Source: a virus | Strand: one strand, 5' to 3' | Length of the DNA: 45,142 nucleotides | IMG/VR virus record: IMGVR_UViG_3300045988_051781 | Span: 1-45,142 of that record | Shown: positions 1 through 45,142 of the stretch, in pieces | Position numbering within the stretch: position 1 is the stretch's first letter | Layout: every line of letters starts with the position of its first letter | Program-made: the position numbers and the translations under genes | Notes under the pieces: model-generated | Databases searched by the model: none | Seen by the model: only the letters and a program-made list of their open reading frames with translations | What the model was told of the DNA's origin: nothing

Positions 1-99
1 AATCAAGAATCCGTAGTTACCAATATTAGCAAATTTATAGGCTACAGACTGTGAACAGTACAAGAGCGGGTGCACGCCTGTTTTCTGGTATACATAGTC
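1..99. repeat. 99-bp terminal direct repeat (circular-closure overlap), identical to 45044..45142
   Basis: Base-by-base reading shows aatcaagaatccgtagttacc...ggtatacatagtc at both window ends, in the same orientation. Confidence 0.95.
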
Positions 100-426
100 G
101 AGCCACGATTTACACCATGCAAAATCGGAGTTGCCAAACGCCGGGTTATTCTGCCCCTCCCAGTCAAGGCAAAGGATTGCTTCGCCTACACGTTTTCCAA
201 TTCTATCAAGGAAGTAATCTGCTTCTTTCTGGTAATCTCCACCAGTCGCATAATGGTAGATACCGAGACACTTTCCGGCGTTCTTAGCCTGTGCGTAAGC
301 TCTTGTGAAATCCGGGTTCACGTAGCCTGTTCCCTCTGTGGCTTTTACAATCACAAAATCGCATGGTACTACACTGAGGTCAATTCCTGTCTGATAACTT
401 GCAATATCAATTCCGTTTAATGACAT
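1..426 (-). CDS. Endolysin, N-terminal GH25 muramidase part; the gene wraps the window junction and continues at 45142..44279
   Basis: ATG at 426. Translation MSLNGIDIASYQTGIDLSVVPCDFVIVKATEGTGYVNPDF...GIYHYATGG is GH25-like. The frame at base 99 matches the frame at 45142. Not in the ORF track because the window edge cuts it. Confidence 0.85.
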   Translation of the reverse strand, partial: MSLNGIDIASYQTGIDLSVVPCDFVIVKATEGTGYVNPDFTRAYAQAKNAGKCLGIYHYATGGDYQKEADYFLDRIGKRVGEAILCLDWEGQNNPAFGNSDFAWCKSWLDYVYQKTGVHPLLYCSQSVAYKFANIGNYGFLI

Positions 427-430
427 AACA

Positions 431-461
431 TTTCCTTTCTACCGCTAACTTTTGACGGTCA
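431..461 (-). promoter_or_regulatory. Conserved leader stem-loop + SD element, copy a (upstream of endolysin)
   Basis: Plus strand TTTCCTTTCTACCGCTAACTTTTGACGGTCA. Near-identical copies at 10357, 12031 and 15414, each directly 5' of a late-gene start. Confidence 0.55.
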
Positions 462-480
462 AACAAATAGCTTCGTCTGT

Positions 481-774
481 CTATTCGTCCTTATTCATCT
501 GCTTGATTAACTGGTTGGCATAATTGCTTAGTCCGGCGACTAAAATCCCTTGTACAATTGCCGTAAAAATAGCCATTGCAATATTTTGTGTACCTTTAAG
601 GTCGCAAGTAGCCACCACGTAGATACCGCAGATCACGATACCGATCACTCCAAGGATTGCCGGGATGTATTTGTTCGCTACGGTCTGCGCTTCTTTTAAG
701 CAGACTCCGATAAAATACAGTGCGATCGCTACAACAACAAGCTCTGGTTTTACATAATTCATAATCTGTTCCAT
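481..774 (-). CDS. Holin (Hol44 / LL-H-like)
   Basis: 97 aa with three hydrophobic segments and a charged C-terminus. MEQIMNYVKPELVVVAIALYFIGVCLK resembles the phage_holin_5 N-terminus. Lies directly upstream of the endolysin, with an AAAGGAA RBS. Confidence 0.8.
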   Translation of the reverse strand: MEQIMNYVKPELVVVAIALYFIGVCLKEAQTVANKYIPAILGVIGIVICGIYVVATCDLKGTQNIAMAIFTAIVQGILVAGLSNYANQLIKQMNKDE

Positions 775-853
775 AGAAAAATTCCTTTCTATAATGTGTG
801 TTTACATGTTACATACTAATAGAGTATTATCGAGTAAAAAGGTGGTAAAAACA

Positions 854-1051
854 ATGGGTGGAAATTTTGCAATAAAGGGCGTTGAATACTTAACGGACTC
901 GTTCCAGATAGTGGACGAGCGGAGAAAGACGATAATGATTTTTGCTACGGATCCGCACTTAAAAGAGGTTGTGCTTATTTACAAGCTCTTAGGTAATCCT
1001 GAAGATTTGCTATATGACGAGGAAAACCCGATTGAAATATTGGAAGTGTAG
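854..1051 (+). CDS. Hypothetical 65-aa protein (plus-strand moron)
   Basis: ATG at 854 follows a GGTGG RBS. Candidate promoter TTTACA(801)-18-TATTAT(825). A hairpin lies downstream. No recognisable family. Confidence 0.5.
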   Translation: MGGNFAIKGVEYLTDSFQIVDERRKTIMIFATDPHLKEVVLIYKLLGNPEDLLYDEENPIEILEV

Positions 1052-1057
1052 AATCTA

Positions 1058-1086
1058 CTCCCCATTGTCCGGGGAGCTTTCTTATT
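1058..1086 (+). terminator. GC-rich hairpin CTCCCC-N7-GGGGAG followed by a T-rich tail
   Basis: Stem 1058..1063 pairs with 1071..1076, then CTTTCTTATT. Sits between convergent ORFs 854..1051 (+) and 1082..1411 (-). Confidence 0.4.
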
Positions 1087-1411
1087 CCACGAATTTTTGA
1101 TAGAAAATAAGTGCATCGAGAAATTCTGAATTACTCGGACATTTCGTTGTACTATAACCTAGAATCTCTTGCACATATTCCCGGTTGCTTTTCCAACATT
1201 TTTCAACGGCGCTTCGGATAGCTGCTTCGATGTTCGCCGGTGACGTTCCGTATTTTTCAGCAATAACTGGATATACGTCTTTCATCATGCGAACATTTTC
1301 ACTTTCTTCATTTTTGGCAGCCACGATTTCTACCGCATCTTGGATATAATGGTATCCTTTATACCTAGAATTTACATGGCATTTTCTCAAAATCATTACC
1401 GTTTCGTTCAT
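1082..1411 (-). CDS. Stand-alone Spo0A C-terminal (DNA-binding) domain protein with no receiver domain
   Basis: 109 aa from ATG 1411 (AGGAGG RBS). RYKGYHYIQDAV, VYPVIAEKYGTSPANIEAAIRSAVEKCW and PSNSEFLDAL parallel the remembered B. subtilis Spo0A C-domain motifs ([50 protein letters not shown]). Confidence 0.75.
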   Translation of the reverse strand: MNETVMILRKCHVNSRYKGYHYIQDAVEIVAAKNEESENVRMMKDVYPVIAEKYGTSPANIEAAIRSAVEKCWKSNREYVQEILGYSTTKCPSNSEFLDALIFYQKFVE

Positions 1412-1461
1412 AATACCCCTCCTAAGTGTGATTCTAAGATGTTTAATGATTTGTTGCACCT

Positions 1462-1470
1462 ATTATACCA
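1462..1470 (-). promoter_or_regulatory. Extended -10 (TGGTATAAT) candidate promoter for the Spo0A_C-like gene
   Basis: The reverse complement of attatacca is TGGTATAAT, about 50 nt upstream of ATG 1411. The -35 element is weak. Confidence 0.35.
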
Positions 1471-1494
1471 CACCCAGAAACGAGCAATATAACG

Positions 1495-1551
1495 TTTTTT
1501 AATGATTTTACTTAATTTTTTTTCGATTTTTTAGCAAGAATCATTAAAAAA
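1495..1551. repeat. Perfect 13-bp AT-rich inverted repeat (TTTTTTAATGATT ... AATCATTAAAAAA)
   Basis: Arms at 1495..1507 and 1539..1551 with a 31-bp spacer, just upstream of the candidate Spo0A_C promoter. Confidence 0.6.
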
Positions 1552-1626
1552 CACATTTCTTTCCCTTGCTATTGTAAAAATTATTCGTTTTCCGCAATAT
1601 TTTCATCCTCTCCTACTTCCTCATAA

Positions 1627-1653
1627 GGAATATTCATAAGCTCTGAATATTCC
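1627..1653 (-). terminator. 9-bp hairpin GGAATATTC-N9-GAATATTCC downstream of the tail fibre gene
   Basis: Perfect inverted repeat. The T-run lies only on the plus-strand side, so terminator function on the minus strand is uncertain. Confidence 0.3.
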
Positions 1654-1701
1654 TTTTCCGTCAGTCTGTTTTCTTATTTTTAAAGATTAGCTTTCTTTAG
1701 C

Positions 1702-3705
1702 TTAGTTAGATACATTATTTGCAGTTCCGATTTTATAAACATAGTCACTCATATTACCATAACTCGCAAAGTCACAGTCTTTTCCATAAACTATCCATAC
1801 CATTTCGTCATCTGAATTAAGCGATGAAATATAACTATAAAGGTTGTTTATTTGTGTGCAACTTATCAAGTTACAAACGTTATTTGTTTTTGCGTTAATT
1901 TCGCCAGACTTCGGATAAATGCTCTGAAATTGTAACCTTCCAGTTCCCAAATCACATTTTATAAAATTCAGTTCTGCGCCTAATATAACAGCACTATTTC
2001 CGTCCTTGTTTTTTCCGTCATGTACAAGCATTGTTTCGACGGTAGTCGTAACGATTTTGCAAAATTTAATCGTACCTTTTTCGCAAGGACTCATACCAAT
2101 TCCTATTGCAGGAAATCTCCCTGTATCATCACTTATATCAGGACATCCGCCCCAATCGAATATACAATTCTCAATAAGCCACTCACCTTGTATTCCCCTA
2201 CTACTACTCTCACAATGCATAGCATATCTTGTGTTTTTACTTTTTATTGTAAATCCTTTAATGGCTGTAAATGTCCTTGGTAATGAAACGATATGAAAAG
2301 CACATTTTTCAACAATGTCACTTCTGATAGGATTTTCTAATCCTGTTGAGCCATTCCATTCGATAATGGTATCTTCTGGATTTCCACTCTTTGATTCGTA
2401 AGTAACCCAAGGTTTTGTAATAACACCTTGATATTTGCTTGTCTGTGCTATACCTGCGTATTTGTCTTGTAAATCTGTGTATGTTCCCGGTAATACGATA
2501 ATTCTGTATCTTTTTGCGTAGGAATTATCGGTAATCGTTTCGTTCGCATGGTAAATAGTAGCAAATGGTTTTTCTTCCGAACCATCACCACTCGTATCTG
2601 AGCCTGTGGTTGAGACATATATGCAATATTCTTTTATTACAGAACCATCTATACTTTTTATATCATTTACAGAATCACTTAAACTTTCCAAAGTGTTATT
2701 GATATTGTCAATGTCATATTTTGGATTTTTGAACCAGTTAGATTCTTTCTGTGTAATGTCACCAGAATATAATTTTGCACCAACAAATACACCAGATTTC
2801 TGCATTTCAGTGATATACATCGTAGTATCATTAGTGATTACTACATCGCCGTTACCTGACGCTGAATATTTACCAATCGGTATCCACTTTCCGTCAGTAT
2901 CTTCGTAAAAAGTAAAAGAGCCACTCATATTTTCATAATGATATGTTCCAGCCTTTAGTGAAATTGGATTGAACGATTGATATGTTTCGGATTCAAGCTG
3001 TTTTTTAGCAGTTTTGTTCCAATATGTTCCAACGCTTGGAGTTCCAATATCATATTCTTTATATCCGCCAACGTGTTCTATTTTGTTATCTAAATCTTCC
3101 TTTAGTGAACCAATATCCTTTTCATTGGTCGCAATCTGTTCCTGATTGGCTGCTATGGCTTCTTTATCCTTTTCGAGAGCATCACCTACAGCTTTTGCAT
3201 CTGCCGGTGAACCAGATACCGAAAGTGTACTGTCCACATCTGTCTTTTTAAGAAAGGTAGATAGTTCGTTTTCTACCGCTTCAAGTCTTTCATCCTGTTC
3301 AGTATTTTTCGTGTCTGATTCGTTTGCTCTGGATTCTAATGTGGAAATCTTTGCATCCTGTTCGGTATTTTTCGTACTGGCTTCACTGATGTCAGACTCT
3401 AAGGTGGAAATCTTTTCGTCCTGTGCGGTGTTTTTGGTTCCGGCTTCTTTGATGTCAGACTCTAAGGCGGAAATCTTTTCATCCTGTTCGGTGTTTTTGG
3501 CATCCACTTCGTTAATCGCACCAACAAGCGTTTTATCAGCCGTATTCAGTCCACTAAATTTATGGGAAGCAATCTTTTCTACTACTACGTTTACGATATT
3601 GGATACAATTGATCTCTTATTTGTGTTTGTTTCTTTATCAAGGATAATGATTTCGTCATTATCAGCGATTCCTTCTTTTTCCGCGTAATCAGTCCACTTT
3701 GCCAT
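1702..3705 (-). CDS. Tail fibre / receptor-binding protein with a coiled-coil repeat region and a possible beta-helix C-terminal domain
   Basis: 667 aa from ATG 3705 (GAAGAAGGTG RBS). Last large ORF of the tail module. Contains 21-aa tandem repeats. A later segment, GSEEKPFATIYHANETI...RIIVLPGTYTD, looks like a pectate-lyase-type fold. Confidence 0.7.
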   Translation of the reverse strand: MAKWTDYAEKEGIADNDEIIILDKETNTNKRSIVSNIVNVVVEKIASHKFSGLNTADKTLVGAINEVDAKNTEQDEKISALESDIKEAGTKNTAQDEKISTLESDISEASTKNTEQDAKISTLESRANESDTKNTEQDERLEAVENELSTFLKKTDVDSTLSVSGSPADAKAVGDALEKDKEAIAANQEQIATNEKDIGSLKEDLDNKIEHVGGYKEYDIGTPSVGTYWNKTAKKQLESETYQSFNPISLKAGTYHYENMSGSFTFYEDTDGKWIPIGKYSASGNGDVVITNDTTMYITEMQKSGVFVGAKLYSGDITQKESNWFKNPKYDIDNINNTLESLSDSVNDIKSIDGSVIKEYCIYVSTTGSDTSGDGSEEKPFATIYHANETITDNSYAKRYRIIVLPGTYTDLQDKYAGIAQTSKYQGVITKPWVTYESKSGNPEDTIIEWNGSTGLENPIRSDIVEKCAFHIVSLPRTFTAIKGFTIKSKNTRYAMHCESSSRGIQGEWLIENCIFDWGGCPDISDDTGRFPAIGIGMSPCEKGTIKFCKIVTTTVETMLVHDGKNKDGNSAVILGAELNFIKCDLGTGRLQFQSIYPKSGEINAKTNNVCNLISCTQINNLYSYISSLNSDDEMVWIVYGKDCDFASYGNMSDYVYKIGTANNVSN
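3253..3498 (-). repeat. About 3.9 tandem copies of a 63-bp (21-aa) repeat inside the tail fibre gene
   Basis: KNTEQDEKISALESDIKEAGT / KNTAQDEKISTLESDISEAST / KNTEQDAKISTLESRANESDT / KNTEQDERLEAVENELSTF. The DNA units are visibly near-identical. Confidence 0.9.
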
Positions 3706-7577: not shown

Positions 7578-10352
7578 CTAAACCGTCTCGAACGGATTTC
7601 TTCCGGTCACTATTTTTTGCACTTTAGCTTCTTCTATAACTTCTTTGAACAATGTTCTACGATTGATCTGTGCCGTAAAATTATAGGTTCCACCGTTGCC
7701 GTTTCCACTTTCTTCTCTTACAATCCGGCGAATAAGGCTTTCTGGTGCTTCGATATTATTACCGTTCTTCTGATCTCCGAGGACTGCCATAAACTCTTTA
7801 TTTGGTGGAATAACGGCTCCCTGTGCGAGATATGGGATTCTTGGAGCCGACCAATAACCTACATTAAATCCGATTGAAGAATAACCGGTCAGTTTTTGCA
7901 ACCATCCAGGAATATCTATATTCAAACTGTTAAGCGCGGACGCGATACCATTCTGCATGGTCTGCGCTGCATAAAGCAAAGAGTTTATAAATCCGATAAT
8001 GGCGTTAATTGGTGCTTTTACAATGGCTGCAAAAGTCCCCCAAACACCGGCAAATATTTGCTTTACGCCATCCCATGCCTGTCTCCAATTTCCGGTAAAT
8101 ACGCCTTTTACAAAAGTAATGATTCCGTCAAATACTTTTTTAACATTGTCCACTATGTTTTTTATGTTCTTAAACCAAGCATTTACATACTCTCCAAGAT
8201 ATCCAAACTCTTCCGTCCAATCGTGGTGAAATGCACTTTTCAGCCATGCGCCGAATTTTTCCATAACAGCCTTGACTTCATCCCAATGGGTTACAAGTAA
8301 TACAAGAATTGCTATAGTTGCAGCTATCGCTACTGCAAGCGGTCCACCAAGTGCGGATACAATAGTACCAATCACTCCGATTAAACCGTTAGATCCAATA
8401 ATTGCAATCAACGAACCAACGACACTAATAATCGTTCCAATAGCACCAACAATTGATACAATGAGCGGAACGATTACAGATGCTGCAAATGCGCCAATCA
8501 GTGCCGCACCAATTACATCAATAATCCATTGGTGTTCAGAAATAAAATTAAAGAACGCAGCTACGACAGAAATTAAAGTCGGAATAGCTGATTCTATTAA
8601 CCACGTAAGGAACGGAAGGACTATATTTTTGTATATCCTTAAAACAAAATTTCCGATAGCTTCTATTAGAGGACTGATAGATTCTAATAACTTCCTTATT
8701 GCATCAAGAAGTGGGTAAAAATCTATACTTGCCGCCCATTCAGCAGTCGCCCAAGCTATTTTATTTATAAAATCGAGAACAGACTGAAAAATATCGGCAA
8801 TTGCCTGTATAATCGCCGTTCCGACAGCGTTCTTATTCCATGCTTCGTCCAGCCTTTCTGCTATTCTTCCGACAGTAATCAGAATAGCCTGAACAATCTG
8901 AAGTGAAGTAGTAAGAAGCTGTGTTCCGGTTCCATTCGTCCAGACTTCTAACATGCTCTTGCCGACATCCTTTGCCAGTTTTCCGAGCTCTGTGAAAGCG
9001 TATTTTGCAGCATCAACTGTTTTCTTTCCCTCTTTTTCCCATGCCTGTTTGAATGGCTTGAAAATCTGTGAAAGAATGTCTTTTAGCTTTTCAAGAACCG
9101 GAATGTCAGTGATCTCAACTTCTTCAAACATCGGGCCAGTGCCACCACCACCACCGAATCCGCCACTTCCACCAGACGGCGATTTAGAAGAAGTATCTTC
9201 TGCGGTAAACTTGTTGATATCATCCAACGGCGAAAGATAGTCCTCTGCTGCTTTTGCTGCATCTTCTGTAGCGTCAGCTGCGTCTTTCGCTGCCGATGCC
9301 GTATCTCCTAGACTTGCAGCATAATTTTTTTGCACTGCTATCGCCCTTGTGTATGTACTCTTTCCAGATAGGAAAGAAAAGAACATACTTACATAGCTTG
9401 CCGCGGTAGACAGCATATCTATAAATTTCGTTAAGATAGGTGCTACGACCGTGAGAATAGGGGCGAACGCAGTAGCCAACGCGTTCTGAAGCCTGACAAG
9501 GCTTGACCACAGCATTGAGATACTCTGGTTTGTCGTGCCGGAATACTGCGCAAGGTTGTCAAATCCACTCTTGATTCCGCCGAAGATTGCAGAAAGCGCC
9601 CGGAATGCAACGCTCATCATAAGAGACATAGCAAGCATTCGCCCGAGTCCCATTCTGGCTCTGCCGGATGACCTGGAAACTTTGTCTAATTCTCCCGATG
9701 CTTTCTTTGCAGAAACTTTCGCCCTATTGTTTGCTTTTTCTGCTTTTTTTCCGTACTCTTCTGCTTTACTGGTTATTCCGTCATAAGACGTTTTTAACCG
9801 ATTATTCATATCGGCAAGCTTTTGCTCTGCCTGTGCGAGCTTTTCTATGTCTTTTTTTGCTTCTTTTGTTCCGGTTCCGGTCGCGAAAGCTTTTCCTGTT
9901 TCTTCCAGGTCCTTTAATTCACCTTCTGCGTATTTTATGGTGTTGGCAAGTTCTTCGAGGTCGTAGGTCTGTTTTTTGTAAGTGTTAGAGCTTGTTTTCC
10001 CACCATTTGCAAGGTATCGGTCCCTTGCTTCTGTTAATCGATTTTGCTTCGCTGTGGCTTCTGCAATCTGCGCCTGTATTTCCCTATATTCGTCTGTTGG
10101 AATCTTCTGGCTGCCATATTCTGCAACCTTTTTCCGCAAACTCTCAACTTTCTGTTCCTGTGCGGCATATTCGTTGTTCAGTTTTGCAAAAGCGTCTATC
10201 TGTTTATTCAGTGCTGCTTTTGCGGTTGCTCCGATATTATTTACTTCTCTTGCAAGATTTCTAAGTCTTGCTTCTACTTCCTTACTTCCGGCTTGTATAC
10301 CGTCAGTATCTATTTCTGTGTCGATAACGACAGTACCATCGGCATAAGCCAT
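7578..10352 (-). CDS. Tail tape measure protein (924 aa)
   Basis: Longest tail ORF. Coiled-coil N-terminus, Gly-rich SPSGGSGGFGGGGGTGP, and a long hydrophobic Ile/Ala/Gly-rich stretch. Canonical position after the chaperone genes. Confidence 0.85.
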   Translation of the reverse strand: MAYADGTVVIDTEIDTDGIQAGSKEVEARLRNLAREVNNIGATAKAALNKQIDAFAKLNNEYAAQEQKVESLRKKVAEYGSQKIPTDEYREIQAQIAEATAKQNRLTEARDRYLANGGKTSSNTYKKQTYDLEELANTIKYAEGELKDLEETGKAFATGTGTKEAKKDIEKLAQAEQKLADMNNRLKTSYDGITSKAEEYGKKAEKANNRAKVSAKKASGELDKVSRSSGRARMGLGRMLAMSLMMSVAFRALSAIFGGIKSGFDNLAQYSGTTNQSISMLWSSLVRLQNALATAFAPILTVVAPILTKFIDMLSTAASYVSMFFSFLSGKSTYTRAIAVQKNYAASLGDTASAAKDAADATEDAAKAAEDYLSPLDDINKFTAEDTSSKSPSGGSGGFGGGGGTGPMFEEVEITDIPVLEKLKDILSQIFKPFKQAWEKEGKKTVDAAKYAFTELGKLAKDVGKSMLEVWTNGTGTQLLTTSLQIVQAILITVGRIAERLDEAWNKNAVGTAIIQAIADIFQSVLDFINKIAWATAEWAASIDFYPLLDAIRKLLESISPLIEAIGNFVLRIYKNIVLPFLTWLIESAIPTLISVVAAFFNFISEHQWIIDVIGAALIGAFAASVIVPLIVSIVGAIGTIISVVGSLIAIIGSNGLIGVIGTIVSALGGPLAVAIAATIAILVLLVTHWDEVKAVMEKFGAWLKSAFHHDWTEEFGYLGEYVNAWFKNIKNIVDNVKKVFDGIITFVKGVFTGNWRQAWDGVKQIFAGVWGTFAAIVKAPINAIIGFINSLLYAAQTMQNGIASALNSLNIDIPGWLQKLTGYSSIGFNVGYWSAPRIPYLAQGAVIPPNKEFMAVLGDQKNGNNIEAPESLIRRIVREESGNGNGGTYNFTAQINRRTLFKEVIEEAKVQKIVTGRNPFETV

Positions 10353-10356
10353 AACT

Positions 10357-10410
10357 TTTCCTTTCTACCGCTATTTTTCTGCGGTCAGCGACTATCTCCA
10401 AGTGATAGCC
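10357..10410 (-). promoter_or_regulatory. Conserved two-hairpin leader + SD element, copy b (upstream of tape measure)
   Basis: TTTTCCTTTCTACCGCTATTTTTCTGCGGTCAGCGACTATCTCCAAGTGATAGCC. Shares both hairpins with copy c. Confidence 0.6.
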
Positions 10411-10412
10411 GG

Positions 10413-11006
10413 TTACTTTTTTAACCCGAACAGTTCCCGAAGCTCTTCTTTTTCCTCTTCGCTCCGTTCGATCTGTTTTACCTTTAAATCCACAAGGGAT
10501 TTATTGTTTTTGTAAAATTCCTGTTCCCACTTCTCCAACTTTTTCCCACGCTTCTTTTTATCACGTAAGCCAACCACAGTCGCAAAAGTGCTTTCTCCGA
10601 TTTCCATGAACAACCCGAGAAACGTCCACCAGTGCATATATTTTTCAGCACGGATGTCTTTACCGGCCACTTTATTCACTGCCGGAATTAAGATTGGAGC
10701 ATCCTGATTCCAGTCCATCAATCTCGGCTTTGGTTTGTTGTCGCTAGAAAAACCACAGTCGATAAACTCTATAGCCTGTTCTGCCGCTTCTTTCCAGTGC
10801 TGCGGAGGGATGCTGTCAAAATCCAAGTACAAAATCTGCAACATAGTCATAGACTGTTCAGCGTTCTTTTCCTGTTCGTTCATTCCGGCGTAAATGTCGG
10901 GATCGTTCATTGCGATCAGAATATCCAGAACGGCTCTGTAGTCTGTACGGATTTCGTAGTCTTTCCCTCCGACTCTAAGGGTTGTGGGTAATTTCCAGGT
11001 GTCCAC
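10413..11006 (-). CDS. Gp15-like tail assembly protein
   Basis: 197 aa with a GTG start overlapping the upstream stop (TAGTG). MDTWKLPTTLRVGGKDYEIRTDYRAVLDI resembles the Phage_Gp15 family. Lies just before the tape measure. Confidence 0.6.
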   Translation of the reverse strand: MDTWKLPTTLRVGGKDYEIRTDYRAVLDILIAMNDPDIYAGMNEQEKNAEQSMTMLQILYLDFDSIPPQHWKEAAEQAIEFIDCGFSSDNKPKPRLMDWNQDAPILIPAVNKVAGKDIRAEKYMHWWTFLGLFMEIGESTFATVVGLRDKKKRGKKLEKWEQEFYKNNKSLVDLKVKQIERSEEEKEELRELFGLKK

Positions 11007-11461
11007 TAGTTGTGGTATTTAGCGACATATTTGTTCATTCTCTTTTTTACTTTCTGTGTGCGGACGTTCATTTCACGTTCTATCACAGTAGCGATAGAGG
11101 AAAGAACGTTTTCTACAAAAAGCTCTCCTGATTCCAGAACAGTGAAAGCTCCGAGGATTCCGAAGAACGATTCTTTTGCATCTGCATCAACAAGATAGCT
11201 GATCTTCTCCACAATATCATTTTCAGCTTTGCGGATATTTTCGACATCCTTTTCCGAATCTCCTGTTTTTTCCGGCATTTGGTAACTTTCGTAGAACTTT
11301 GCTACCTCTTCGTATCGGTCGATAATATTGGTGTCAGATGGTCGGAAAGTGAATTTCCCGAGCATCTGACCGCGCTTGTTCTTGATGTTGTATGTCTTTG
11401 CACCATCATCAATGATGATATTGTTTCCCTGTACATTGCTTTTTACCAATTTGTTGCTCAT
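11006..11461 (-). CDS. Tail assembly chaperone-like protein
   Basis: 151 aa between the major tail protein and the Gp15-like gene. Assigned by position. Confidence 0.5.
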   Translation of the reverse strand: MSNKLVKSNVQGNNIIIDDGAKTYNIKNKRGQMLGKFTFRPSDTNIIDRYEEVAKFYESYQMPEKTGDSEKDVENIRKAENDIVEKISYLVDADAKESFFGILGAFTVLESGELFVENVLSSIATVIEREMNVRTQKVKKRMNKYVAKYHN

Positions 11462-25928: not shown

Positions 25929-26564
25929 TTACCTCTTTTTCCTTTCTGTCAGTTCTTCTCCGAACGACTTAATCTTTACAATGTTCCCTGCACATTCTTC
26001 AGGAACCTGTCCGTAAAACAGCACTGTCTCAGGTTCCAATCTTTTCATCATCTCATTATATCCGTCCATGAACAGTGCTTTCCGCTCCTTGCTGTTCATT
26101 ACTCCAACACTGGATACCGCTACTACACTTCCTACCGGCTCACCGTCAAAACACCAATCAAACGATTCTCTGTCGCTCCAACTGATTGTAGGTATCACAT
26201 CTATACCGTACATCTGCATATAAGCACCTAACCAATGCTTGCGAAAATGGTTGTAAATCTGCAAAGCTTTCGGGAAATCCGTGTAAGTGCTAAAATCTGG
26301 CGACATGACACAATCAAATTTGCTCAACACTGGAATGTATTTATCTGGATGCGTCCACAGTCTTAGAAATTGGTAATCATCCAGAAAGAAGTGTATCCCT
26401 TTGCCCTCCGGCTTCTTGCAAGTATTTGCATAGTTAAAACCTATAAATTTACACTTTTCGTATGATGTAGGTTCTATCTTTGGTATGTCATACTGACCAA
26501 CGCCATCAAAAATATACTTCTGTTGGTTTTCGTAGTTCTTCATTTCGCGGTACAAAAAATACAC
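25929..26564 (-). CDS. DUF4417-like protein
   Basis: GIHFFLDDYQF..LW..P..Y...L..F..V.SPDFS and GIDVIPTISWSD resemble DUF4417 from memory. Start uncertain (GTG 26564, TTG 26555 or ATG 26543). Confidence 0.55.
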   Translation of the reverse strand: MYFLYREMKNYENQQKYIFDGVGQYDIPKIEPTSYEKCKFIGFNYANTCKKPEGKGIHFFLDDYQFLRLWTHPDKYIPVLSKFDCVMSPDFSTYTDFPKALQIYNHFRKHWLGAYMQMYGIDVIPTISWSDRESFDWCFDGEPVGSVVAVSSVGVMNSKERKALFMDGYNEMMKRLEPETVLFYGQVPEECAGNIVKIKSFGEELTERKKR

Positions 26565-26737
26565 CTCCCACGGTCTTTTTATATATTTTACCGTGAAACA
26601 TGTATAAAAGTAGGACTCACAATTGTTTTTTTCATAACGGAAAAGTCCATGCTGGAAGTTGAAAATGGTGTATATATATTTAATGGTTCCAGAATGTATC
26701 CAGAGCGGAACAAAAATGGAGGCGTATAGGAACCGCA

Positions 26738-26790
26738 GAATAGAATAGAATAGATAAGAATAGAGTAGAAAAGAGTAGAGTAAATAATAA
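26738..26790. repeat. Degenerate pentanucleotide tandem repeat (GAATA)n, about 10 units
   Basis: gaata gaata gaata gataa gaata gagta gaaaa gagta gagta aataa, in the 420-bp non-coding region 3' of the integrase gene. Confidence 0.85.
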
Positions 26791-26915
26791 TGTGGAACTT
26801 TCTCCCCACAGTATTATATTTATCTCTTTCTATATCTTTTTCTTTATCTAGGCAGCTAACATTATCCTTACAGTTAGTTTTACATTGCGATCTCGCATTT
26901 TCCGCTGTTTTTTTC

Positions 26916-26936
26916 GATAGATTCTCGGTCAATTCT
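26916..26936. repeat. 21-bp repeat, inverted copy of 28358..28379 (20/21 identical), downstream of the integrase gene
   Basis: GATAGATTCTCGGTCAATTCT versus the reverse complement of 28358..28379, GATAGAATCTCGGTCAATTCT. Confidence 0.9.
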
Positions 26937-26948
26937 GGTTATTTCTAC

Positions 26949-26978
26949 TTCCTATAATCATCGGGACGATTATAGGAA
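26949..26978. other. Dyad-symmetric element TTCCTATAATC-N8-GATTATAGGAA abutting the integrase stop codon (terminator or att-like site)
   Basis: Perfect 11-bp arms at 26949..26959 and 26968..26978. No U-run on either strand. Confidence 0.5.
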
Positions 26979-26985
26979 AGGGAAA

Positions 26986-28332
26986 TTAGAGCAAATTAAA
27001 ATAGATGTCTATATTTCCGTCAGTAATCACAATCTTGTCTATGCATTCTTTCAGAATTTTGTTTTGTTCTTTTACATCTAATTTATCCCATACATCCGAA
27101 ATCTTTTTTATTTTTTCAATTCTCTCCGGAGTGTTCAAAGATTTTTTCCGCGTTTCCCTGTCTAGCTCTCTTCTAAGTTCTTTTACACGTTTTTCCGACT
27201 TTCCGATCACTTCCAATAGCGTTTCACTTTCACTTGTGGCATATAATTCATAGAGCTTTTTAAGCTTGTCTACCGTGCTTTTCATTTCTTTTTCAATAAG
27301 CTCTTTTTTACTAAGTTGCTTTTCACGTCTTCCTGTTATATTCACAGCAAATCGCTTAAAACAATCCGACACTTCTTTTTCCACGTCCTTTGCGTCCGGT
27401 CTTTTGTTGTCGCAATTTGGGTTTTTTACCATGTATTCTTTGTACCCATCCCTAGAATAACACTCTAATACATGTCTATTCGCCCATTTTTTATATCGCA
27501 TTCGTGCGCCACATTTTCCACAAAAGCACAATCCAGAAAGCAGAAATTTGTTGCAGATATAAGAATTATTCGCTCTTTTTTCCATAAATTTCTGTGTTTT
27601 GTAAAATGTTTCTTCGTCTATGATTGCTTCATGTTTCCCCTTGTAAATGTTTCCTTTGTATTCTATGTATCCTATATTCGACTTTCTTTTTAATATCTGA
27701 ATAACAATTCTTTCTCCTTTCATTCCGAGCATTTCCGATATTTTCTGGCATGAATATCCATCGTTATACAGCCGATACATAGTCCGAACCTTTTCTGCTT
27801 CTTCTTCTTTTGGATGTAATATCCCGTCATTTCTGTCATAGTAATAGCCGAACGGGACACGCCCTCCGCCCATCCACAAGCCACTTTTAACACGCTCAAG
27901 CATCCCGGCTTTTGTTCGCATGGATATAATCTCGCGCTCGTACTGTCCCATAAGCGCATCAATGCCGATTTTCATTTTGTCCATTGGCGTATCCAGACTT
28001 AATTCTTCGGTAGCTGATACAATCTTAACATTGTATTCTGGCAATGTTCGATACAGAATAACAAGCGTATCAATGGTATCACGGCTCACTCTGTCGAGTT
28101 TATAGATATATACCTTTTCGATATATCCATTCTTAGAATCCTCTAATAACCGTTGTATATCCGGTCGGTCGAGCGTGCTGCCAGAATAACCGCCATCTAT
28201 ATACCACTTGTCTATCTTGTCTCCCTCTTTTTCTGCCCTTTCTATGATCTTGTTTTTTTGCAGATCCAGTCCATATTTTTCCGTCTGGTTCTCGGTCGAT
28301 ACCCTAAGATAACCTACATTCATTTTCTTCAT
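26986..28332 (-). CDS. int: Large serine recombinase (integrase type)
   Basis: 448 aa from ATG 28332 (AGGAAG RBS). N-terminal resolvase domain VGYLRVSTENQ...LDRVSRD, recombinase domain, zinc ribbon CFCGKCGARM, C-terminal coiled coil. Confidence 0.9.
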   Translation of the reverse strand: MKKMNVGYLRVSTENQTEKYGLDLQKNKIIERAEKEGDKIDKWYIDGGYSGSTLDRPDIQRLLEDSKNGYIEKVYIYKLDRVSRDTIDTLVILYRTLPEYNVKIVSATEELSLDTPMDKMKIGIDALMGQYEREIISMRTKAGMLERVKSGLWMGGGRVPFGYYYDRNDGILHPKEEEAEKVRTMYRLYNDGYSCQKISEMLGMKGERIVIQILKRKSNIGYIEYKGNIYKGKHEAIIDEETFYKTQKFMEKRANNSYICNKFLLSGLCFCGKCGARMRYKKWANRHVLECYSRDGYKEYMVKNPNCDNKRPDAKDVEKEVSDCFKRFAVNITGRREKQLSKKELIEKEMKSTVDKLKKLYELYATSESETLLEVIGKSEKRVKELRRELDRETRKKSLNTPERIEKIKKISDVWDKLDVKEQNKILKECIDKIVITDGNIDIYFNLL

Positions 28333-28357
28333 GTCAACTCTTCCTTTCCATTTAAAA

Positions 28358-28390
28358 AGAATTGACCGAGATTCTATCAAGGTCAATTCT
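28358..28390. promoter_or_regulatory. Perfect 10-bp palindrome AGAATTGACC-N13-GGTCAATTCT upstream of int (operator or attP candidate)
   Basis: Arms at 28358..28367 and 28381..28390. The left arm plus spacer recurs inverted at 26916..26936. Confidence 0.6.
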
Positions 28391-28396
28391 ATATCA

Positions 28397-28513
28397 TCAC
28401 TTCTTTTCCGTCAATTTACTGGCAAGAATCTTTTTTATATTTTCATTTTTTATTTCAATTTTTTCCAAATCTTCTCTTTTTGTAAGGATCCCATTTACGT
28501 ATATCCTAACCAC
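28397..28513 (-). CDS. Possible 38-aa ORF upstream of int
   Basis: GTG at 28513, 6 nt after AGGAGG. VVRIYVNGILTKREDLEKIEIKNENIKKILASKLTEKK. Below the ORF-track size cut-off. Confidence 0.3.
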   Translation of the reverse strand: MVRIYVNGILTKREDLEKIEIKNENIKKILASKLTEKK

Positions 28514-28811
28514 TTTCTTCCTCCTTTTTTAATCTAAGATCACGTAACTTTTTCATTGCCAATCTTCTATAACCCTGGAAATCTACCTTTTGAACTGGGA
28601 TAAAGTATATTCGGCTCATTCTGTCATAGCCTACACCCGTTATCAGATTCAAAAAGATATAATGTGCTATATATTGGTTGGCTTCTACACAAGCAGCTAG
28701 AACGTCCTCTTGTTCTTCTCCTTTTGCCGTTCTGCAAAAATCAAGGATCTTTTTTTCTGTATCGCTATCTATCTTATAATCTCGCATGTATTTATATCTC
28801 GTCCTTGTCAT
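28506..28811 (-). CDS. Hypothetical protein (101 aa; possibly 139 aa from 28925)
   Basis: ATG 28811 follows an AAGAGGTG RBS. MTRTRYKYMRDYKIDSDTEKKILDF... No confident family. Confidence 0.5.
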   Translation of the reverse strand: MTRTRYKYMRDYKIDSDTEKKILDFCRTAKGEEQEDVLAACVEANQYIAHYIFLNLITGVGYDRMSRIYFIPVQKVDFQGYRRLAMKKLRDLRLKKEEESG

Positions 28812-33528: not shown

Positions 33529-34847
33529 CTACGCAAATCTTAATTGTTCCGCAATTGCCTGAATTACATTTACGGTTACGCCATTCCCTGCCTGTTTGTA
33601 TAACTGGCTATCCGAATTTACGAACTGTGCTTTTTCAAAATAATCGTCCGTCCAACCTTGTAGTCGGAAGCATTCTTTTGGTGTTAGTTTTCGGATTGCT
33701 ATATAACAATGATATTTTTCATACCAGACCGCATATACAGTCAGTTCTTCGGATACCTGTACAAAAATTCCTTGATTACAACTTGTGTCGAGCGTGTTGG
33801 AGATTTCTTTTCCGTAATCGCTCCGAACATTCCGTAGCACCCCGAGCGGCTCTATTCCTACTCCATGTCTATCCTGTCCAGTAAGTGTAAACATCGGTTC
33901 GCCATCTTCTTTGAATCTCCGTCCATTCTGTCTTTTTTCCGTTCGATCAGGCGTAAGGATCGGAATTGCAATGCCACTATTTTCATGGATGTTTGAGCAT
34001 CCTTTATAGTATCTTGCGAGAATCGTTCTGCTCACATCCGTTGTCACCGGCTTTCCCTGATACGCTAAATCTATAAAGCACGGTAATGCTACATGATGTC
34101 CTCTTCCGCCTCCTTGTGCCGTATCCAGCGTTTCTGTAATGCCGTTCTGGTCAAATACCTGTGTGTTTCTTCTATATCCATCTTTATGGCCAATTATTTG
34201 AACACGATTTTCTCCGTCTGCTCTTTCGACAGGAAATACTTTTGCTGTACTTCTCCCTCTAAGATGTCCGATAATGAAGCACCTTTCTCTGTTTTGTGGC
34301 ACTCCGAAATCTTTGGAGTTGAGCACTTGCCATTCTGCATCATACCCCCCTGCTCCATTTCAATGAGCAGTCTGGCGAAATCCCATCCTCCATTAACACT
34401 AAGCAAATTCTTAACGTTCTCAATGAAAAGGTAAGCGGGTTTATTTTCTTCTTCGAGCTGTCCGATAAGGTACATAACTCGGAAAAACAGGCTTGAACGG
34501 TTTCCTTGAAATCCAAGCTGTTTTCCTGCAACTGAGATGTCTTGGCATGGGAATCCGAAACACCAACAGTCTGCTTTCGGAATATCATCGGCACACACTC
34601 TTCTAACGTCATTTGCGTACCATTCTCCGTTTCTGTATTCATCTTTTAAAATCTCCTTCTGCCTTTTTTTCTGTGGTAATTCATTCAGTTTCTTTCTTTG
34701 TTCGTCCGTCAGAAGATGCATGGAAATGTAGCTTGCTGCAGCGAACTTATCAAACTCGCAAAAACCAACGCATTCATGTCCGGCAAGTTCCATTCCCCTT
34801 CGGAAACCACCTATTCCGGCGAACCAGTCTATAAATTTCACTCTCAC
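33529..34847 (-). pseudogene. DNA (cytosine-5) methyltransferase split into two ORFs at a G6 (plus-strand C6) homopolymer
   Basis: ORF 34194..34847 carries FAGIGG, FPCQDIS and ENVKNL. ORF 33529..34326 carries QNRER and GNGVTV. One extra G at 34345..34350, or a -1 slip, restores EQGGYDAEWQVLNSKDFGVPQNRER. Confidence 0.8.
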
Positions 34848-41041: not shown

Positions 41042-41063
41042 TTTTTACCTCCTAACGTTTTTA

Positions 41064-41082
41064 AATCCTATATTTTAGGATT
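41064..41082. promoter_or_regulatory. Palindromic operator-like site AATCCTA-N5-TAGGATT
   Basis: Spans the cro-like stop codon. Shares TTTTAGGATTCT with the two repeats at 41366..41402. Confidence 0.45.
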
Positions 41083-41293
41083 CTCTATCCACAAAAATAA
41101 AGTCCATAGGAATACCAGAAAGTTCACTGATGATTCTTAACTGACTTAAATCTGGCTCTGTTTTACCTAACTCCCAATTAGTTACAGTTGCCGGAGAAAC
41201 GCCCACTTTCTCAGCAAATTCTCTTTGTTTCAGCTTCGCATTAACTCTACATGCTGCTATGGAAATCCTCGGAACTTTGTAAGTCTCTACCAT
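41075..41293 (-). CDS. Cro-like XRE-family HTH regulator
   Basis: 72 aa. LKQREFAEKVGVSPATVTNWELGKTEP is a classic XRE HTH. First gene of the minus-strand early operon. Confidence 0.75.
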   Translation of the reverse strand: MVETYKVPRISIAACRVNAKLKQREFAEKVGVSPATVTNWELGKTEPDLSQLRIISELSGIPMDFIFVDRES

Positions 41294-41325
41294 TTAGGTT
41301 CCTCCTTTCTTTATCTTATGCCTGT

Positions 41326-41354
41326 ATTATAATCCTATTTTTTCGTATTGTCAA
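41326..41354 (-). promoter_or_regulatory. Consensus sigma-A promoter for the early (cro-side) operon
   Basis: Minus strand TTGACA (41354..41349), 17 nt, TATAAT (41331..41326). An AATCCTA half-site lies in the spacer. Confidence 0.65.
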
Positions 41355-41365
41355 TATAATAATTT

Positions 41366-41402
41366 AATTTTTTAGGATTCTTGTTGAATTTTTTAGGATT
41401 CT
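41366..41402. promoter_or_regulatory. Two perfect 16-bp direct repeats AATTTTTTAGGATTCT (operators), 21 bp apart
   Basis: 41366..41381 and 41387..41402, in the divergent cro / XRE-repressor intergenic region. Confidence 0.65.
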
Positions 41403-42377: not shown

Positions 42378-43112
42378 ATGCTAACGAAAAATGAAATGCT
42401 GGATAACTTTGCACATAACATCGAAGAAGAGCGGAAAAGCCTTGATTTTACGCAAGTTCTCTTTTCTAAGATGCTGGGTGTGTCTGTGTCCACATACAAA
42501 AATATCGTTTCACGGAAGACTAATAATCTTGACGTTTTCTTAGCACTAAGGTTGTCGGAACTAACTCATAAATCTATCCCTGATCTCTTAGGGTATTCTT
42601 CTAAGGAATACGAGGTATTGGGAAAGTACAGACAATTGACCGACAGACAACGTGCGTATATTCTTGGCAAGATGGACTATGAAATCTCTATGAAAGTATT
42701 GGAAACGGATCCCGAAAACATGTTGGATGTTCTATGTCTTACTGGCGAGATGGCTGACGGTATGATATTGGATTCTTCACACGAAGAACGGATATACTGC
42801 CCGGAATACATAAAAAAGTACGGTGAGACATTACATTGTGGCATAAAGATAACGAGCAACCACTTGCTCCCTGTATATGTAAAGGGTGATATCATCTGCA
42901 TATCCAAAAGAGTGCCAAGAAACGGTGATACCGTGATTATTATACATAAAGAAACAGGACGTGCGTATATAAGGCGGTATGTGCAGAGAGGTAAGATAAA
43001 GTTAGTCCCGATCAACGGCTTCGGTGATGTCATAGAAGTTGATCCAAATAGTTTTGAAGACATGGAACAATGGGTAAGGTTTGGAGTTGTGATTGCGGTA
43101 TTAAGAAGATAG
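42378..43112 (+). CDS. CI/LexA-like repressor (HTH + S24 peptidase-like C-domain)
   Basis: 244 aa. The N-terminus FTQVLFSKMLGVSVSTYKNIVS is the HTH. The C-terminus ITSNHLLPVYVKGDIICISK...NGDTVIIIHKETGRAYIRRY...FGVVIAVLR has S24-like topology. Confidence 0.75.
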   Translation: MLTKNEMLDNFAHNIEEERKSLDFTQVLFSKMLGVSVSTYKNIVSRKTNNLDVFLALRLSELTHKSIPDLLGYSSKEYEVLGKYRQLTDRQRAYILGKMDYEISMKVLETDPENMLDVLCLTGEMADGMILDSSHEERIYCPEYIKKYGETLHCGIKITSNHLLPVYVKGDIICISKRVPRNGDTVIIIHKETGRAYIRRYVQRGKIKLVPINGFGDVIEVDPNSFEDMEQWVRFGVVIAVLRR

Positions 43113-44278: not shown

Positions 44279-45142
44279 CTATTTTACCCTTAATCTCTGT
44301 CCGGCATAGATCAGATTTGGATTGCCGATTCCGTTAAGCTGCGCAATCTTCTGATAGGACGTGCCGTACCTGGATGCAATGCCGGAGAGCGTATCACCGG
44401 ACTGCACCGTGTAATACTGTGCGGATGAAGCACCTGACTTACCGTTCACGATATTCTGAATCGTATTGTAGTCATATCCGGCAGCTGAAAGACGATTCTT
44501 TCTGTCGTTTCCGTTACCCCATTTACCGGCAAGCACTTCCTGTGCGATCTGCTCATTTGATTTTCTGGCAGACGCAGCATTGATCTTATTCTGCACATCA
44601 TTGTAACGACTACCGAGAACAACTTTTCTTGTGTCGCCATTGCCGTATTTACCGGCTTTTACTTCGTTCACCAGTGTATCTACCGGTGCAGAATAGATAT
44701 GGTCGATGAAGCTCTGTACTTCCGTATACCGTGTTCCGAGAGCGTTCTTGCGGTTGTCACCATCACCGTACTTGCCCTGCATGACTCCAACAACCAGATC
44801 GAGCGTGGAACCGGTCGGAGTATTCACTGTCGGTTTCGGTGTTTCTGCCGGTTTGGTTGTGTTTCCTTTTCCGGCGTATTTGTTCCATGCGTCCTTGTCG
44901 CCGTAGAATTTATCCAGATCGAGATTACCGCCCCATCCATTCAATCTACCACAAGAGCTATACTGCCGGATAACGCAAGTATAAGCTCCCTCATTCCACG
45001 GCTTATCCTGATAGCCTGTGGCGTTCATGTCTGCGTACTGTGCAATCAAGAATCCGTAGTTACCAATATTAGCAAATTTATAGGCTACAGACTGTGAACA
45101 GTACAAGAGCGGGTGCACGCCTGTTTTCTGGTATACATAGTC
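44279..45142 (-). CDS. Endolysin, C-terminal part: end of GH25 domain + 3 CW_7 repeats + LysM (continues from 426..100 across the junction)
   Basis: [34 protein letters not shown] and [20 protein letters not shown] are CW_7-like repeats. [29 protein letters not shown] is LysM. Open to the window edge and in frame with 1..426. Confidence 0.85.
45044..45142. repeat. Second copy of the 99-bp terminal overlap
   Basis: Identical to 1..99. Confidence 0.95.

Follow-up and report, generated by a model that had tools for sequence, protein, structure and literature searches.

The large serine integrase gene int and the inverted repeats around it were analyzed in the IMG/VR virus record IMGVR_UViG_3300045988_051781, the whole of which (45,142 nucleotides) is referred to here as the window. 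We found that the phage attachment site (attP) lies directly 3' of int and that phages of this family integrate into the host gene sigG or, in some relatives, sigF. These genes encode the forespore (germ-line) sigma factors in the sporulation of Bacillus and Clostridia. The repeats are distinct from attP and comprise a palindrome, O, with arms A and B upstream of int, a degenerate copy, C, at the ribosome site, and an inverted copy, D, beyond attP. Integration separates D from int, and we consider it likely, counting both possible signs of the effect, that the repeats form an RNA switch that senses integration.

Attachment sites and integration into sigG

In Coprococcus comes isolate L065, a prophage encodes an integrase 97% identical to that of the window. 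The homology between L065 and the window ended about 30 nt after the int stop codon, inside the inverted repeat at 26941..26986, which overlaps the stop codon and lies between it and D. The sequence beyond the break was that of a sigma-factor gene, of which the 3' two-thirds were present, in frame and with the same orientation; their best match in NCBIfam was SigG. Junctions of the same type were found in three further genomes with integrases 54-62% identical to that of the window, two of them in sigG and one in a sigF-like gene. The sigma fragments scored best against the NCBIfam SigG equivalog models (that of L070, against SigF), at scores below the full-length cut-offs as is expected of fragments. 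The empty bacterial site (attB) was represented by uninterrupted sigG of the same kind of host (P0023, L225). By alignment, the core CCGATGAT was common to attP, attB, the right junction (attR) and the predicted left junction (attL), at the codons ..YAVP/MIIG... The attR seen in L065 consists of the left part of attP and the right part of attB.

The left junction was located by predicting the fusion protein of the truncated sigG (sigG') and the phage, and then looking it up exactly in a public protein collection. The predicted fusion comprises SigG residues 1-96 followed by MIIGSRNNQN and a stop. This sequence and three variants predicted from relatives of the window were all present as exact matches (4/4), on 17, 9, 4 and 2 contigs. 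On the attL contigs L228-L230, the order was murD, ftsW/spoVE, ftsZ, sigE, spoIIGA, a beta-CASP nuclease gene, sigG', CC, the P' arm of attP, D, small phage genes, TerS, TerL and portal, and the attL of a second group of relatives (group 2; L226) had the same geometry. A metagenome scan for the pattern of P' arm plus D gave no match. All four sites, namely attP, attB within sigG, attR and attL, were recovered, the search of host genomes for prophage junctions that the earlier note had advised having defined the latter two (L065, L228-L230). sigG is split at about residue 96 of the 260-aa SigG. The conservative products of attP x attB expected of a serine integrase, attL and attR, are present in host genomes. 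Furthermore, the features of attP (about 50 bp, an imperfect dyad, a non-palindromic central dinucleotide and a short core of identity with attB) match those of serine-integrase sites (PMC3783163). Taken together, these findings make the assignment of 26941..26986 as attP and of sigG as attB practically certain.

Because attP is directly 3' of int, the prophage is permuted, with the packaging genes at one end and the early genes and int at the other (L228, L226). This arrangement had been anticipated on the supposition that the palindrome was attP; it was indeed seen, by way of 26941..26986.

Several observations concern the target gene. Related integrases (53-54% identical) were inserted at the equivalent PMI(Q/S)GEI codons of a sigF-like gene in L070 and L204, from which we conclude that the integrase family targets conserved region 2 of both forespore sigma factors. 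At attR, the 3' fragment of sigG starts with an ATG (Met97) right at the crossover (L065 11372..11866; P0024, P0008) and many assemblies annotate it as a 164-aa open reading frame (ORF); with read-through from int, a sigma-G shortened at its N terminus could be made. Other truncated N-terminal fragments of SigG (P0122, P0127, P0188) carry differing foreign tails after ..YAVPM.. or ..GEI.., and further unrelated elements may, from these sequences, insert at the same stretch of sigG. In group 2 (L226 6395..6465), D is followed by a terminator and then by a strong TTGACT-17-TATAAT promoter directed toward the packaging genes, so that the att region there also parts host read-through from late transcription.

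Repeats around int and their conservation

The palindrome O (33 bp, 28358..28390) has the structure AGAATTGACC-N13-GGTCAATTCT. Its inverted copy GATAGATTCTCGGTCAATTCT is located at 26916..26936, and the reverse complement of this copy matches 28358..28378 at 20 of 21 positions; the sequences flanking the serine integrase gene are as the earlier note described them. An inverted-repeat search extended the match to 26 nt at 88% (26916-26941 / 28353-28378). The count of three given there for the 10-mer was also correct: three exact copies are present in the window, every one around int. When one mismatch was allowed, six copies were found window-wide against 4.2 expected, which is no enrichment. 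Hence, enrichment alone is no proof of significance, and it is conservation that supplies it.

The best promoter-like site in 26400..28700 (10/12 matches) is the predicted promoter of int, P_int (Table 1). Its predicted start at about 28378-28380, about 7 nt past the -10, is the first base of the stretch complementary to D. Since arm A overlaps the -10, it is present only in transcripts begun upstream; since the predicted start lies inside the palindrome, P_int transcripts would be devoid of A and would begin with the free spacer followed by B. Of the 17 lineage leaders examined, 16 had TTGACN-17-TANNNT in the equivalent place; the exception, L082, has no -35. Element C (AGAGTTGAC) is an additional degenerate copy of the repeat, and the Shine-Dalgarno/C region is predicted to pair with B and the U-run; arm B is the common partner of A, C and D. 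D consists of the spacer and one arm only, and the sequence past it is unrelated to O. A 76% similarity between the flank of D and the codons around the catalytic serine of int was judged to be due to chance. The int transcript probably ends at the terminator-like hairpin downstream of D. A clear intrinsic terminator, of the form GACGGTTTGACCGTC-T7 in relatives, is found in most lineages about 50 nt past D.

A total of 59 IMG/VR contigs contained the exact arms of the palindrome, and in each the palindrome preceded the int start by 25-60 nt; most of these contigs belong to group 2, whose integrase is 54-55% identical to that of the window. Further scans yielded about a dozen more lineages with integrases 52-63% identical. 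The downstream copy D was present in every non-integrated relative, and across all lineages it lies 5-15 nt past the P' arm of attP as the reverse complement of spacer plus B. Despite differing sequences, 14 lineages had one layout: a promoter overlapping A, spacer, B with the U-run, Shine-Dalgarno, C, int, attP and D. The arm is AGAATTGACC, ATTGACCTGAA, AATGGCTAG, AAGGCTAG or AATGGGATTGA depending on the lineage, and D and C follow it each time.

RNAalifold gave no consensus structure for the 17 leaders. The MAFFT alignment had set two sequence superfamilies one column out of register, and alignment-free matching was used instead. Each leader was compared with its own and other lineages' 3' regions or Shine-Dalgarno/C regions, with 20,000 permutations. 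The mean score of the leader was 35.8 against its own 3' untranslated region and 20.5 against those of other lineages; for the Shine-Dalgarno/C region, the corresponding values were 17.9 and 13.6. In both comparisons, 0/20,000 permutations reached the observed value. A search of 26500..28700 against Rfam (E <= 1) matched no family. The conservation and co-variation indicate that the repeats are very likely functional parts of a conserved regulatory module around int and attP.

Integration divides this module. The promoter, A, B, C and int come to lie at attR, and D is carried to attL, directly behind the truncated sigG', whose stop codon lies inside D. Indeed, the integrated members L065, L067 and L204 kept the promoter, A, B and C, and had host DNA in place of D.

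Table 1 Features of the window around int and in the regions referred to in the text
Feature	Position	Strand	Remarks
Holin gene	481..774		in the lysis block with the endolysin gene
Terminator-like hairpin (26791..26810) and T-rich tail	26781..26810	-	about 105 nt past D
Element D, AGAATTGACCGAGAATCTATC(GA)	26914..26936	-	5 nt past attP; complementary to the first ~23 nt of the predicted int mRNA
attP	26941..26986	-	46-bp imperfect palindrome; two 22-nt arms, 82% symmetric; central CC at 26963..26964
int, large serine recombinase gene, 448 aa	26986..28332	-	Pfam PF00239, PF07508, PF13408; PHROG 95 integrase
Shine-Dalgarno region GGAAAGGAAG (28340..28349) and element C AGAGTTGAC (28333..28341)	28333..28349	-	immediately 5' of the ATG
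Leader segment: spacer (28368..28380) and arm B (GGTCAATTCT, 28358..28367)	28358..28380	-	followed by the U-run, 28354..28357
Arm A, AGAATTGACC on the int strand	28381..28390	-	overlaps the -10
P_int, predicted sigma-A-type promoter	28386..28414	-	TTGACG 28414..28409, 17-nt spacer, TAGAAT 28391..28386
Small conserved ORF, 38 aa, ending ...KKILASKLTEKK and stop	28397..28513	-	called as a gene in the identical contig L145
CI-like repressor gene	42378..43112	+	within the divergent immunity block

Predicted pairing of the int transcript and competing explanations

The predicted minimum-energy fold of the leader had B and the U-run paired with the Shine-Dalgarno/C region (-15.5 kcal/mol, z -3.3 for the window). 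When A was included, the A:B hairpin formed instead (dG -14.5 kcal/mol, z -4.6), and the same alternative folds were predicted in all of the 10 lineages folded. The duplex energies were -31.8 kcal/mol for leader:D, -15.2 for B:C and -14.5 for A:B, and the leader:D duplex was within the dimer minimum-energy structure in 14/14 lineages. In the model, addition of the 3' region raised the mean unpaired probability of the segment from Shine-Dalgarno to AUG in most lineages, from 0.23 to 0.60 in the window, from 0.41 to 0.81 in L077, from 0.18 to 0.64 in L084 and from 0.26 to 0.64 in L203.

The mismatches between D and the leader also bear on the nature of the pairing. Since RNA duplex folding of long segments adds spurious outer pairs, mismatches were counted from ungapped and identity-based alignments. 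On the int strand, the identity-based alignments contained 11 transition mismatches of the G·U type against three of the A·C type. The group-2 D core showed only two polymorphisms, both A-to-G changes that keep a G·U pair, and its flanks vary freely. This bias points, modestly, to the sense transcript. When the A:B hairpin was scored strictly by identity, neither G·U nor A·C mismatches turned up, and hence A:B is uninformative on DNA versus RNA. The copy C, squeezed in between Shine-Dalgarno and start codon, co-varies with B; as a DNA site it would have no obvious meaning. The composition of D, which in group 2 matches chiefly the spacer (GACCAAGATTCTAT), suits a strand-displacing RNA partner and not a dimeric DNA-binding protein. 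As judged from the sequences, the evidence favors RNA pairing over protein operators.

On this basis we propose a model in which B masks the ribosome site and D from an intact attP displaces the masking. Transcripts from P_int would start inside the palindrome and hence be made without arm A. B would be the anti-Shine-Dalgarno strand, and together with the U-run would fold onto the Shine-Dalgarno/C region, hiding the ribosome site. D, 1.4 kb downstream past attP, would be by far the strongest partner of B, being complementary to the free 5' spacer and B. As long as attP is intact, on infecting or excised DNA, D would be part of the int mRNA; it would use the spacer as a toehold, displace C and turn on the translation of Int, and it may also shield the 5' end. 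Upon integration, D would leave the transcript and P_int-driven synthesis of Int would stop. Read-through transcripts from the early operon would carry A, and A would pair with B to give a hairpin with the U-run, terminator-like, and a free ribosome site; such transcripts would supply Int on induction. We judge this activating version of an integration-sensing RNA switch to be evenly balanced between right and wrong.

Several points weigh against it. In the model, the ribosome site was not opened in group 2 (0.14 to 0.17) or in L216 (0.31 to 0.30), which makes the direction of the effect uncertain. G·U outnumbers A·C by a modest margin, and some of the counted changes have a common origin. Where int transcripts start and end, and how they pair, is predicted throughout. 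A single co-evolving DNA-binding protein that read both O and D would likewise make them co-vary, and the 21-23 bp RNA duplex could equally be a target of RNase III, which would give the opposite sign.

The latter possibility resembles the sib system of phage lambda, in which a local hairpin (the extended tI terminator) is cut by RNase III with a negative effect on int. In a sib-like retroregulation of opposite sign, the leader:D duplex would form only on unintegrated DNA, and the int mRNA would be cut by RNase III or otherwise destabilized; Int would be low in lytic growth and the int message would be stable in the lysogen. As with sib, D lies past attP, is in the int transcript only if the phage is unintegrated, and is split from int by integration. 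The predicted duplex of 21-28 bp is long enough for RNase III, and the closed ribosome site of the group-2 model agrees with this explanation. However, D on its own forms no local hairpin and is predicted to pair, over a distance of 1.4 kb, with the 5' leader and its anti-Shine-Dalgarno hairpin; from sequence and folding predictions, its effect is probably positive. The integrase of the window is also a serine recombinase, unlike the tyrosine integrase of lambda. Moreover, a sib-like effect leaves unexplained why B is the anti-Shine-Dalgarno strand in every lineage and why A, C and D compete for it. Combined with the B:C hairpin it would leave no translated state for P_int transcripts. An infecting temperate phage needs Int before integration. 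We regard it as rather unlikely, though as the leading alternative.

Somewhat less probable still is a control by DNA operators, in which a Cox/TorI-like factor, a host protein or Int itself would bind O, repressing P_int, and D beside attP, possibly with looping. The palindrome covers the -10 and the start site, a classical operator position, D is close to the P' arm in all lineages, and O and D co-vary as they would with a co-evolved protein specificity; for KplE1, there is a precedent of control of an int promoter near att sites by the recombination directionality factor (RDF) and the integrase (PMC2951348). Against this, D is the spacer plus one arm, and in group 2 mostly the spacer, not an arm read by a dimer. 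The co-varying C at the ribosome site is left unexplained, as is the bias of the changes to G·U on the int strand. Nothing like O occurs in the immunity region, whose candidate operators (41057..41402) are not related to it. The arms of O are unlike the attP arms read by Int, and no DNA-binding domain was found in the ORFs neighboring int (Pfam, NCBIfam, PHROG). The proposal in the earlier note that the repeats are autoregulatory operators holds in that they are regulatory and overlap the int promoter; as to the means, the position of C, the make-up of D and the G·U-tolerant changes favor RNA pairing.

That note had also considered inversion of the int cassette. In such a Hin-type device, O and D would be recombination sites and int would flip relative to its promoter; a serine recombinase gene is indeed enclosed by inverted repeats of 21-26 nt, and its promoter is external to the enclosed segment. 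However, the orientation of int was identical in 59/59 palindrome contigs and in all other lineages, D is single-armed without a second dimer half-site, and the recombinase demonstrably uses its own unrelated attP/attB pair. The three to four O/D mismatches tolerated in several lineages would also be poor for a crossover site, and we consider inversion very improbable. The remaining proposal, that O is the attP core and D a pseudo-site, has the dyad symmetry beside the integrase gene in its favor but practically no chance of being right, because the junctions (attR in L065, attL in L228-L230) and the empty site in L225 map the crossover to 26941..26986, the L065, L067 and L204 prophages retain an intact O, the attL chimeras predicted from 26941..26986 exist exactly, and the odd-length centre of O is unsuited to a 2-bp crossover.

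The activating switch could be extended to the lysogen. There, D would be the 3' end of the truncated sigG' transcript made from the sporulation-controlled host sigG promoter, and would act in trans on the int leader, so that the sigG'-D RNA would turn Int on exactly as the cell attempts to make sigma-G. Excision would restore attP and put D back in cis, so that Int synthesis would need no further input, which could allow re-integration. We consider this extension improbable as it stands. If true, it would couple the excision from a forespore gene to sporulation via an RNA and not a sigma-dependent promoter, and would constitute a reversible RNA-gated prophage switch in gut spore-formers.

Genome setting, related systems and meaning

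A 99-bp exact direct repeat at the termini of the window (1..99 and 45044..45142) shows that the assembly is circular and the genome about 45.04 kb long; an endolysin gene (CW_7 + LysM) runs across the end join. A human-gut metagenome contig (L145) is identical to the window. On the minus strand, the lysis genes are followed by the immunity block, the early genes (from about 41 kb down to 28.5 kb), int, and then DUF4417/TerS/TerL, portal, head and tail. The position of int between the early and the packaging genes, far from the repressor gene, agrees with what had been reported earlier. A contig otherwise 99.97% identical to the window (L144) has an FGGY sugar-kinase gene (1..1992) fused to the phage at window position 34547, in the DNA methylase region; this join was judged to be a chimera or a rearranged/defective copy.

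The Int protein contains the domains Resolvase (PF00239, 2.6e-33), Recombinase (PF07508) and Zn_ribbon_recom (PF13408), with the catalytic serine within YLRVSTENQ. By its sequence it is a genuine large serine recombinase, since the domain set fits the definition of the class (about 450-700 aa). Among the GenBank phages searched, only distant matches were found (68% over the int gene). In L065 (Coprococcus comes MSK.16.63, 8454..11382), the int cassette, in which promoter, palindrome and int are preceded by about 1.3 kb of upstream genes, is located after the holin/lysis genes and not after early genes. This position indicates that the cassette is modular and therefore appears to move as a module between phage backbones. 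The idea that the repeats are remains of a mobile int cassette is borne out in this respect, whereas the repeats themselves are conserved and co-varying and are not relics.

The last codons of the 38-aa ORF upstream of int contain the -35 of P_int, and its C-terminal motif, ...KKILxxKLTxK and stop, is kept across lineages. Its product had no match in Pfam, NCBIfam or PHROG and is a possible RDF candidate. Likewise, the ORFs directly upstream of int matched nothing in Pfam, NCBIfam and PHROGs, and no RDF or regulator could be named from them. In the immunity region, repeated TTTTTTAGGATTCT motifs and a palindrome AATCCTATATTTTAGGATT between divergent genes (41057..41402) are likely repressor operators. 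The close relatives L004 and L005 lack some 290 bp that separate D from DUF4417 in the window (26620..26915); this segment contains five 10-bp periodic repeats (AGAATAGAAT-like) at 26737..26786 and the terminator-like hairpin; it could be a packaging or binding site. Adjoining the lysis genes, a 125-aa phage protein (1082..1459, minus strand) consists of a Spo0A C-terminal DNA-binding domain (PF08769, 4.6e-25; TIGR02875). The presence of this gene together with integration into sigG suggests, from the sequences, that the phage interferes with the control of host sporulation.

In the mycobacteriophages BPs, Brujita and Charlie, the repressor gene contains attP, and a protein degradation tag is lost on integration. 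As in this integration-dependent immunity, attP of the window is inside a transcription unit whose product changes, by which the phage would sense integration; here, in contrast, int lies on one side of attP and a 3' RNA element on the other, and it is the translation or stability of the int mRNA that is proposed to be affected. The proposed leader also resembles leader anti-Shine-Dalgarno switches and toehold riboregulators, in which an upstream strand masks the ribosome site and a better partner frees it via a single-stranded toehold. In our model, however, the strand that frees the site is carried by the same mRNA about 1.4 kb further 3', and whether it is there at all depends on DNA recombination. 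Prophages or elements with a large serine recombinase are known in sporulation genes, namely skin in sigK, SPbeta in spsM, gin in gerE and yin in yabG (PMC4191935, PMC5025042, PMC5595907, PMC10747680). Like them, phages of the window type interrupt the coding sequence of a sporulation gene that is restorable only by precise excision; unlike them, they target the forespore genes sigG and, in some relatives, sigF, and not mother-cell genes. In the literature searched, the coverage of which is incomplete, we found neither a report of prophages integrated in sigG/spoIIIG nor a description of leader-trailer pairing across attP.

Serine integrases are widely used as one-way tools of genome engineering, and little is known about how phages control their expression. 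The exact attP and attB of the integrase family of the window are a gain for annotation. If the model is true, the module would amount to a compact and portable RNA-based reporter of a past DNA recombination event, with the design rule of an anti-Shine-Dalgarno strand, a Shine-Dalgarno decoy and a distal complement across attP. For the hosts, the findings show that abundant Lachnospiraceae phages of the human gut integrate into sigG or sigF, genes that act in the future spore cell. This raises the question of whether such prophages block sporulation, excise in the germ line or cycle, which bears on the transmission of gut commensals.

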